Source of the DNA: Magnetococcales bacterium
Lineage (GTDB): Bacteria; Pseudomonadota; Magnetococcia; Magnetococcales; DC0425bin3
Direction: 5' to 3'
Assembly (NCBI GenBank): GCA_015228935.1
Contig: JADGCO010000005.1
Coordinates: 13,128 to 77,127 of the forward strand
Length of the DNA stretch: 64,000 bases
The notes below the pieces were generated by a model, which worked only from the letters and a program-made list of their open reading frames with translations, had not been told where the DNA came from and made no database searches. Position 1 is the first letter of the stretch; every line of letters begins with the position of its first letter. Positions 13,266-15,366 of this stretch are shown here, one piece after another. Position numbers and translations under genes: made by a program.

Positions 13266-15212
13266 ATGTGTGGAATTACAGGTTTTTTTTCCCCGCGTCG
13301 TGAGACTACGGCATCCCTCCTGGAACAACAGGTTGGACGCATGAACGATGCCCTGGCCCATCGGGGCCCGGACGCATCCGGAATCTGGACCGATCCCCAG
13401 GCCGGCATCGCCCTGGGACACCGCCGCCTGGCCATTCTCGATCTCTCTCCCAACGGCCAACAACCCATGGTTGCGGCAAGTGGTCGTTATGTCACCGTCT
13501 TCAATGGCGAAATTTATAATTTTGCCGACCTGCGCCGGCAGCTCACGGACCAGAATGCCGCCCCCGCCTGGCGGGGACACTCCGATACCGAAGTGATGCT
13601 CGCTGCCCTGGACCATTGGGGTGTGGAGGGTGCCCTGCCCCATTTGCACGGCATGTTTGCCCTGGCCATCTGGGACCGTCAGAACCATCTGCTCCACCTG
13701 GTCCGTGACCGCATCGGCAAAAAACCACTTTATTATGGCTGGTTCGGCGGCATATTTGGTTTTGCCTCGGAACTGACCGCCCTGCGTGCCCATCCGGCCT
13801 GGAATGGCAAAATTGACCGGCAAGCCCTGACCACCTATCTCCGTCATGGATATGTACCGGACCCTTTCAGTATTTTTCTGGGCATTGCCAAGCTCACGCC
13901 CGGCTCCATTCTGACCCTGCCAACCGACAGTATCGCCCAGGGAGAGCTGCCCCAACCCCAATCCTACTGGTCATTGGCCACCTGGACCGCCGCCGACCCG
14001 CCTGTTGCCGAATCCGTGGACGAAACAACCGCCCTGCAAGAACTGGATCGCCTTCTGCACCAGGCTGTGAGCGAACGCATGGTGGCCGATGTCCCCCTGG
14101 GCGCATTTCTTTCTGGCGGCATGGACTCATCCCTGATCACCGCTTACATGCAGGCCCATGCTGAACAACCGGTACGCACGTTTACCATCGGCTTTCACGA
14201 GGCCGGTTTTGATGAAGCGGTCTATGCACGTGCCGTGGCCGCCCATCTGGGGACCCGGCACACCGAACTCTATTTGACTGCCGCTGACGCCCTGGCAGTC
14301 ATACCCCGCCTGGCGACCCTCTCCGACGAACCCTTTGCCGATGCCTCGCTGCTCCCCATGTTTCTGGTCTCCCGTCTGGCGCGGGAAGAGGTGACCGTGG
14401 CACTTTCCGGGGATGGCGGCGATGAATTTTTTTGTGGATATGGACGTTATCGCCAGGCCCTGGCCGCCTGGCAACGCCTGGCCACGCTGTCACCCCTTCT
14501 CCGTCACTTGGCCGGAGGTATCCTGGGCCATATTCCGGAACAAGTGTGGCAGATCGCCAACCATGTAAGCCCACGTCTCAATCCCCGGCGGGGTACCATC
14601 TGGAGCAATCTGCTCCGGCACGGTTCGCCTGACCTGCTGTATCAATATCTGGTCTCCTGCCATCTGGACCCGGCGCGTCTGGTGGTGAATGGCACCGAAC
14701 CCGCCACCCGGTTCCTCAACCCGGAGCAATGGGGAGGAAGTCCGGATTTTTGCACCCGCATGATGTTTCTGGATGCCCATACCTATCTGCCCGGTTCGGT
14801 CCTTGTCAAAGTGGATCGCGCCACCATGGCGGTCGGCCTGGAAGCCCGGGCACCCCTGCTCGATACCCGCATCATTGAATGGGCCTGGCGTCTGCCCCGG
14901 CACCTGAAACTGCGGCCCCAAGGTGGCAAATGGTTGTTGCGGCGTCTGCTCCGCAACCACCTGCCTGCCCATCTGATCGAGCGACCCAAACAGGGCTTCG
15001 GGGTTCCGGTGGGAAGCTGGCTGCGAGGTCCGTTGCGTCCCTGGGGTGAGGCCCTGCTCGCCCCGGAACGTCTGCATCGGGAAGGGTGGCTCAACCCGCA
15101 GGCCGTCGGCGAAGTCTGGGCTGCCCATCAGGCCGGTCGGCGTCAGGAAGGCGAACTTCTCTGGGCGATCCTCATGTTTCAGGCCTGGCTGGCAACCATT
15201 GAATCTTCGTAA
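13266..15212 (+). CDS. asparagine synthase (glutamine-hydrolysing) family amidotransferase
   Basis: Starts MCGITGFF, a class II glutamine amidotransferase with Cys2 as nucleophile. The synthetase PP-loop is SGGMDSS. The upstream ORF extension from 13134 is read-through of the MITE and is rejected. Confidence 0.85.
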   Translation: MCGITGFFSPRRETTASLLEQQVGRMNDALAHRGPDASGIWTDPQAGIALGHRRLAILDLSPNGQQPMVAASGRYVTVFNGEIYNFADLRRQLTDQNAAPAWRGHSDTEVMLAALDHWGVEGALPHLHGMFALAIWDRQNHLLHLVRDRIGKKPLYYGWFGGIFGFASELTALRAHPAWNGKIDRQALTTYLRHGYVPDPFSIFLGIAKLTPGSILTLPTDSIAQGELPQPQSYWSLATWTAADPPVAESVDETTALQELDRLLHQAVSERMVADVPLGAFLSGGMDSSLITAYMQAHAEQPVRTFTIGFHEAGFDEAVYARAVAAHLGTRHTELYLTAADALAVIPRLATLSDEPFADASLLPMFLVSRLAREEVTVALSGDGGDEFFCGYGRYRQALAAWQRLATLSPLLRHLAGGILGHIPEQVWQIANHVSPRLNPRRGTIWSNLLRHGSPDLLYQYLVSCHLDPARLVVNGTEPATRFLNPEQWGGSPDFCTRMMFLDAHTYLPGSVLVKVDRATMAVGLEARAPLLDTRIIEWAWRLPRHLKLRPQGGKWLLRRLLRNHLPAHLIERPKQGFGVPVGSWLRGPLRPWGEALLAPERLHREGWLNPQAVGEVWAAHQAGRRQEGELLWAILMFQAWLATIESS

Positions 15213-15366
15213 CCATTCAGAACCCCTTCATTAAAAGGATTTGACATGGAAGACTTTGTTGGGGCTCCGCCCCAAACCCCGCCAAGAGGAAGGGCACAGC
15301 CCTTCCTCTTGGACCTCCTTCCCAGTTTTTCAAACGTTTACTAAAATAGGGGGTCTGAATAGTTAC
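15209..15366 (+). mobile_element. MITE-like element copy (158 bp, long-hairpin subtype 1)
   Basis: TIRs are GTAACCATTCAGAACCCC at 15209 and GGGGGTCTGAATAGTTAC ending at 15366. It carries GGGGCTCCGCCCC and the hairpin CCAAGAGGAAGGGCacaGCCCTTCCTCTTGG (15282..15312). Its ends contain the stop codons of both flanking genes. Confidence 0.85.

Follow-up and report, generated by a model that had tools for sequence, protein, structure and literature searches.

A putative IS66-type miniature element holding the stop codons of obg and a convergent amidotransferase gene in a Magnetococcales bacterium

Gene ends and the element between them

In the 64-kb window considered here (the whole stretch of DNA analysed, 64,000 nucleotides of contig JADGCO010000005.1 from a Magnetococcales bacterium), the gene of the GTPase Obg and that of an asparagine-synthase-like (asnB-like) amidotransferase converge, and a repeat element of 158 nt lies between their stop codons, which are 150 nt apart. 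The asnB-like gene has its true start at ATG 13266 (MCGITG...) and ends in ...FQAWLATIESS, with the TAA at 15210-15212 inside cGTAACC. On the other strand, the obg open reading frame (ORF) ends in ...AEDEDDS with a TAA that is the reverse complement of 15363-15365, inside AGTTAC. Both proteins are 100% identical to proteins of the Magnetococcus sp. DMHC-1 metagenome-assembled genome (MAG; contig JAMOAV010000003.1), the amidotransferase being P0121 in our protein set. The features of the junction are given below, where TIR stands for terminal inverted repeat, TSD for target-site duplication and MITE for miniature inverted-repeat transposable element.

13266 to 15212, plus strand: asparagine-synthase-like amidotransferase gene, 648 aa, Pfam Asn_synthase and GATase; stop codon in the left TIR
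15192 to 15200, plus strand: TIR-like 9-mer GCAACCATT, just outside the left TSD copy, encoding A-T-I of the AsnB-like tail
15201 to 15208, no strand: left TSD copy GAATCTTC, 7/8 identical to 15367-15374
15209 to 15366, plus strand: MITE of subfamily A, assigned to an IS66 origin (ISBst12 group) from its nhmmer match (E=2e-47), TIRs and 8-bp TSD
15209 to 15226, plus strand: left TIR GTAACCATTCAGAACCCC, holding TAA 15210-15212, the stop of the asnB-like gene
15261 to 15273, no strand: small hairpin GGGGC-TCC-GCCCC, predicted to fold, a conserved module of the repeat family
15282 to 15312, no strand: central perfect 14-bp GC-rich hairpin CCAAGAGGAAGGGC-ACA-GCCCTTCCTCTTGG, from folds and sequence, the most conserved module of the family
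15349 to 15366, minus strand: right TIR, reverse complement GTAACTATTCAGACCCCC, holding the obg TAA (reverse complement of 15363-15365)
15367 to 15374, no strand: right TSD copy GAATCGTC, a 7/8 match with the left copy
15363 to 16484, minus strand: obg, GTPase ObgE, 373 aa; stop codon in the right TIR, no GVxCxWVx tail

The original prediction, made from the letters alone, was that a single element copy supplies the stop codons of both neighbours, and this proved correct: each TAA lies inside a conserved GTAAC terminus, and the element supplies both stops because both fall within boundaries fixed by the 8-bp target duplication. Its reading of the repeat as a transposon-type element with inverted ends also stands. 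The ends pair at 16 of 18 positions (17/22 when extended), the element belongs to a repeat family, and the 18-mer TIR has five matches in the window at three mismatches or fewer, against 0.07 expected. The 8-bp flanks are identical at seven of eight positions (chance of at least 7/8, ~4e-4). Among the 31 paired elements of the family with enough flank to compare, 15 had 8-bp flanks matching at 7/8 or better, compared with 0/31 in an offset control, and the flanks of another window copy, 19668-19815, match perfectly at 8/8 (GTTCCAGC). A TA duplication of the IS630/Tc1 type had been entertained and was dropped for the 8-bp one after the IS66 parent emerged. The 158-nt element has no transposase gene, and the sole ORF crossing it is a spurious 63-aa read-through with no family support.

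Some details of the prediction require correction. An insertion into a 3' coding end does not always create an immediate stop, as was claimed, since this is true for one frame in three only; in the other frames the entering ORF stays open for 8-12 codons, and one right-end frame stays open for 49. The prior chance that both ORFs meet the immediate-stop frame is 1 in 9. The description of two essential-looking genes suits obg and not its neighbour, which has no close Magnetococcales ortholog and whose best matches are ~54% identical and come from unrelated phyla. A second, degenerate TIR copy had also been placed immediately upstream, at 15191-15204. The match is real over nine nucleotides, starting at 15192 rather than 15191, and GCAACCATT recurs unchanged as the opening 9 nt of the sibling copy at 13086; the claimed 14-mer closes with five bases, GAATC, that are part of the 8-bp target duplication and not of a TIR. 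By chance ~1.5 such 9-mer matches are expected per window, and two unrelated occurrences were seen; that one should fall within 30 nt of the element has a chance of ~0.0014, a post-hoc figure. The idea that GCAACCATT was left by an older copy that took part in the rearrangement described below is speculative.

Repeat family and parent insertion sequence

Repeat finding, alignment and an nhmmer search of the 64-kb window, with a profile built from four window copies, identified 10 loci of the repeat family:

Full-length copies (n = 4): 15209-15366, 13086-13243, 19668-19815, 996-1144
Core kept, termini different (n = 2): 3016-3187, 39449-39620
Partial copies (n = 3): ~34001-34128, 24528-24605, 21867-21940
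Mini copy, ends only: 46427-46461, minus strand
Sibling subfamily-A copy among the full-length ones: 13086 to 13243, plus strand, 158 nt, E=7e-46, occupying the intergenic space upstream of the asnB-like gene

Subfamily A, which includes the 15209-15366 copy, and subfamily B are homologous over their full length and share one order of parts, with the small hairpin GGGGCTYCGCCCC followed by the long GC-rich hairpin (the perfect 14-bp stem at 15282-15312). The copies at 3016-3187 and 39449-39620 have both conserved hairpins between other inverted ends (GAGGCWGTC.ATTAAC...), which suggests that the core is exchanged in a mosaic or modular way between MITEs with different termini. The mini element (46419-46461), read on the minus strand, is barely more than two ends, GTAACTATCCAGCAGCC-TTTCAAGAAAAG-CCTGAAACAGTTAC, and enters a 333-codon open frame. 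The sibling at 13086-13243 occupies the gap from the RimK-like stop codon (13061) to the asnB-like start (13266), ends 22 nt before the ATG, and could affect how the asnB-like gene is expressed; the 8-bp sequences on its two sides are rich in T and ambiguous, matching at 5-7 of 8 positions. We considered whether the copies at 13086 and 15209, which are in direct orientation, bound a composite MITE-asnB-MITE transposon. The outer flanks differ (CGTTTTTT vs GAATCGTC), and the 15209 copy is flanked by a matching duplication of its own while that of the 13086 copy is ambiguous, so that this arrangement was rejected.

Further family copies are present in related Magnetococcales MAG loci (L004, L014, L015, L016 and L137). 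A core-pattern scan of the representative-genome collection, a set to which the window's own genome does not belong, gave one true match, in the Magnetococcales MAG of L004; the other 12 matches were judged to be chance from their hosts alone. Rfam gave nothing of relevance at gathering or at permissive thresholds: at the gathering score only two tRNAs were recovered in the window, and the best match in the region (E=0.07) was far below threshold.

On one metagenome contig (L071), a 481-aa ORF matching DDE_Tnp_IS66 (PF03050, E=1.4e-44) and DUF6444, with a weak, below-threshold match to zf-IS66, is enclosed by the ends GTAACCATTCAGCACCCC ... GGGGTGCTGAATGGTTAC, and the left TIR of the window element is identical to the left end of this transposase-bearing insertion sequence (IS) at 17 of 18 positions. 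Homologous transposases are encoded at seven more metagenome loci found by the TIR pattern. For ISDge4, a single-ORF element of the IS66 family (ISBst12 group), the TIRs are GTAACTGCTCAGCA and GTGACTACTCAGCA and the direct repeat measures 8 bp (PMC12898284), and IS66 inverted repeats generally begin with GTAA and produce 8-bp direct repeats (PMC11946415). The end of the window element, GTAACCATTCAG..., starts with 5'-GTAA, as the IS66 rule has it, and resembles ISDge4 GTAACTGCTCAGCA. On these sequence grounds we assign the 158-nt element to the non-autonomous MITEs of the IS66 family, ISBst12 group, with ends 5'-GTAAC...GTTAC-3' and an 8-bp TSD; as far as its sequence can tell, it has every feature of such a MITE except an orthologous empty site. 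A literature search pairing ISBst12 with MITE gave no match.

The TIR-pattern scan of metagenome contigs returned at least 120 loci, mostly from human-gut assemblies, and gives no basis for a census of Magnetococcales. Among the loci listed (L017-L136), many are low-GC human-gut contigs on which the 18-nt ends GTAACTATTCAGAACCCC ... GGCTCTGAATAGTTAC bound elements of 60-190 nt with quite different interiors and often perfect 8-bp duplications (for example, L029 11070-11211; L045 2653-2795; L083 9658-9799; L089 11932-12091 and 13266-13408). From these shared 18-nt ends, the elements look like a cross-phylum set of ISBst12-type MITEs.

The larger set was also used to examine the expectation that copies systematically abut or overlap stop codons, which did not hold. 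Of the 139 different element ends whose flanks were long enough, 107 were intergenic, in that no ORF of at least 100 codons enters them (the pattern may have matched some of these ends by chance), and the 32 ORF-entered ends showed no preference for the stop frame, the three frames being used 9/11/12 times. Long ORFs on gut contigs do end at a terminal TAA (964 codons in L070, 559 in L086 and 349 in L066). Stop donation recurs, at the rate expected from frame chance.

Obg tail, synteny and the order of events

Ortholog comparison showed that the C-terminus of Obg is abnormal. An acidic run followed by GVxCxWVx ends 61 of 69 Magnetococcales-type Obg orthologs, including the two closest ones (86% and 84% identity; ...EENGVTCYWVR and ...EEDGVICHWVR), whereas the window Obg stops inside the acidic run. 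The motif is also missing in seven other orthologs (P0004, P0011, P0016, P0057, P0062, P0066 and P0068); with 8/69 orthologs lacking the tail, loss of this conserved motif has therefore recurred. For tail-less P0004, no TIR or core pattern was seen by eye in the 201-bp 3' stretch, only a chance GTAACC. The amidotransferase tells a different story from the one originally proposed, in which element insertion had remodelled its C-terminus. AsnB-like homologs are conserved through ...LMFQAWL, after which their tails vary and measure 3-25 residues; among these ATIESS is unremarkable, and no loss is detectable at this end because ATIESS is within the normal tail range of the family.

Synteny also breaks at the element. 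To its right, ispB, maf, rplU, rpmA and obg are in syntenic order, and the order rplU-rpmA-obg-proB is interrupted at the element; DNA homology of the obg side with relatives stops 4-6 nt outside it. In relatives, proB directly follows obg (L014, L015 and L138), or a methyltransferase gene comes first and then proB (L016), and proB was not found in the 64-kb window. To the left of the element lie an arn-like lipid-A-modification cluster, a RimK-like ATP-grasp gene and the amidotransferase gene, all convergent on obg. The arn-like cluster (4203-9843) comprises an ArnT-like transferase, a GT2, a formyltransferase, an epimerase/dehydratase and a deacetylase, and a DegT-type aminotransferase (20366-21706) is encoded on the opposite side of the obg-ispB block. 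Between rpmA and rplU, a 53-nt unit (ACTCCGGCRGCACGGCAAGGACCGATYCA...) occurs five times in tandem (17032-17281), and the public annotation places a 99-aa gene there on the opposite strand.

A subfamily-B copy without the obg-proximal TIR lies between obg and proB in L014 (5137-5263), the closest relative with an Obg 86% identical, and in L015 (1973-2099); it begins at the intact obg stop (TGGGTGCGATAA|ATCGAGGTCC), and the join falls in microhomology GC(G/A)ATAA with the element interior. In L016, where an inserted methyltransferase gene separates obg from proB, a ~55-bp stretch at the obg 3' end (CAGGAAGAGGATGGCGTGATCTGTCAC(T/C)GGGT(G/A)CGA(T/C)AAGAGGCTGTCA...) is tandemly duplicated (2308-2425). 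The repeat family seems to have a hot spot at the obg 3' end. Orthology of the window copy with the post-obg copy in L014 was rejected, the two belonging to different subfamilies and having different distal flanks.

Taking out the element together with one copy of the duplication yields a reconstructed empty site, ...GGCTGGCAACCATTGAATC(G/T)TCTTCATCC... (predicted in short form as ...GGCTGGCAACCATTGAATC(G/T)TCTTCATCCTCAGCC...). Read across this site, Obg ends in ...AEDEDDSMVASQA (...DEDDSMVASQA), 6 codons longer and with the conserved tail still absent; the amidotransferase is 18 codons longer, and the two run-on ORFs overlap by 88 nt. Because the flanks form the target duplication, they were contiguous when the element arrived, and since the reconstruction is without the Obg tail, the loss of the tail and of the link between obg and proB most likely preceded insertion. 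We therefore keep one half of the original claim that element insertion remodelled a C-terminus: the element supplied the stops, and the conserved Obg tail was most likely gone earlier rather than removed by it.

The explanation that we consider the best, and probable as judged from the sequence, is a rearrangement followed by the insertion of an IS66-type MITE that trimmed 6 + 18 junk codons. In the DMHC-1 lineage, a rearrangement would have broken rplU-rpmA-obg-proB a few codons before the end of obg and fused obg to the 3' end of the accessory asparagine-synthase-like gene, tail to tail. GVxCxWVx would thereby have been lost, and the convergent ORFs would have run into antisense sequence, gaining 6 (Obg) and 18 (AsnB-like) junk codons and the 88-nt overlap. 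A MITE would then have entered the overlap at GAATC(G/T)TC; its ends read G-TAA-C inward and, with the ORFs in matching frames, both would have stopped at the first element codon, leaving the genes 150 nt apart with strongly self-pairing DNA between them.

Several observations weigh against this sequence of events. The target duplication is imperfect (7/8), and no IS66 transposase was found in the 64-kb window. Neither an orthologous empty site nor a second assembly of the junction is on record: relatives do not share the obg|asnB junction, and a single MAG contig carries it. Repeats are classic sites of chimeric assembly or inter-copy recombination, either of which gives a synteny break, although neither predicts matching flanks. 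Finally, the insertion site lies within ~14 nt of the rearrangement junction, a coincidence that is unexplained unless GCAACCATT is the scar of an older, rearrangement-causing element.

These points lead to the alternatives. The MITE itself may have truncated an intact obg ~9 codons before its native stop, at GACGATTC, with the tail and downstream DNA lost then or later, for example via element-mediated adjacent deletion or inversion. The missing Obg tail, the end of relatives' homology 4-6 nt from the element, the TIR-like remnant adjoining the insertion, and the apparent hot spot at the obg 3' end (the truncated subfamily-B copy at the obg stop in L014 and L015, the insertion with a 56-bp duplication in L016) are all in line with such a truncation, yet the 7/8 duplication implies that the asnB end was already contiguous with the obg side at insertion, the reconstructed site has no remnant of the tail, and a deletion or inversion from an element end would have destroyed the matching flank, which makes it distinctly unlikely. 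Alternatively, a MITE copy close to obg could have been joined to a different copy behind the asnB-like gene, by the assembler or by homologous recombination. The MAG source, with one contig carrying the junction, the 10 related repeats in 64 kb and a synteny break exactly at a repeat would fit such a join, which would, however, pair unrelated flanks, whereas the observed ones match at 7/8 (chance ~4e-4); no compositional break runs across the obg/asnB junction and no island boundary lies at the element. We regard this origin as quite improbable, and even so the obg-side end would supply the obg stop.

The third alternative concerns the nature of the element, which might be a functional RNA or DNA module at gene ends (a bidirectional terminator or a REP-like stabiliser, after the repetitive extragenic palindromic sequences) with only a secondary likeness to transposons. 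The folds are very stable, a long TIR-closed hairpin with an internal 14-bp stem being predicted at -73.6 / -80.6 kcal/mol on the two strands (z ~-8); the perfect 14-bp GC hairpin is conserved across subfamilies, including copies with other termini, and copies are mostly intergenic. No stem is followed by a U-tract on either strand, however, which speaks against the bidirectional terminator raised by the original prediction; a T5 run occurs 19 nt after the stem on the plus strand and none on the minus strand, a terminator scan of 15209-15366 found no terminator-like site, and no Rfam family matched. Furthermore, the termini equal those of transposase-bearing ISs, 8-bp duplications are present, and copies also lie upstream of genes (13086-13243 before the asnB start; 996-1144). 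This leaves the module reading with hardly any credibility. The element may play a role in pausing or in 3'-end protection.

Within the favoured reading of rearrangement and then insertion, removal of the overlap may have been of some benefit, and the hairpin may stabilise or end transcripts. A bolder extension is that the MITE was selected, providing clean stops, separation and a hairpin for overlapping genes, and that the ISBst12-type MITEs of Magnetococcales and human-gut contigs may form an undescribed cross-phylum superfamily that repeatedly edits gene 3' ends; we think this rather unlikely.

Significance and comparison with known elements

The locus is a clean case of a miniature transposon setting two gene ends at once, one of them that of the essential GTPase Obg. 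It shows that natural loss of GVxCxWVx, conserved across Magnetococcales, is possible (8/69 orthologs are without it), and a parent IS family can now be named for an abundant, apparently undescribed repeat family of magnetotactic cocci. In practice, this aids annotation and serves as a warning on MAG assembly joins at such repeats. No new mechanism is involved, as MITEs over gene 3' ends are already documented; ours shows, neatly but in an ordinary way, how small transposons remodel the ends of genes, and is modest in reach.

Among known elements, the window element shares with ISDge4 and the ISBst12 group the termini (GTAAC, then ...T.CTCAGCA / ...TATTCAGCA) and the 8-bp duplication, and a single-ORF DDE_Tnp_IS66 transposase lies within virtually equal 18-nt ends at L071. 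It differs from these ISs in being 158 nt long, in having no transposase and in its unrelated interior of two conserved hairpins. Enterobacterial REP sequences and bacterial interspersed mosaic elements (BIMEs) are likewise abundant, intergenic, mosaic and hairpin-forming, and often lie between convergent genes. REPs are not known to have long TIRs or target duplications and are linked to Y1 transposases (REP-associated tyrosine transposases, RAYT), in contrast to the window element with its IS66-type TIRs and 8-bp duplications. The Correia elements of Neisseria and the Rickettsia palindromic elements are further bacterial MITEs that overlap gene 3' ends. In Coxiella burnetii, some QMITE1 and QMITE2 copies extend over the final 1-50 bp of functional genes, to which they give C-terminal residues or stops (PMC5896051). 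Like the family described here, QMITE1 and QMITE2 are short, bounded by TIRs, hairpin-forming, multi-copy and mostly intergenic, with some copies overlapping gene 3' ends; the parent IS family and the host clade differ (the window is from Magnetococcales), and the window copy ends two convergent genes at once, including the essential, tail-less obg. What distinguishes the present element is its Magnetococcales host and IS66/ISBst12 derivation, while the kind of element and its effect are already known.

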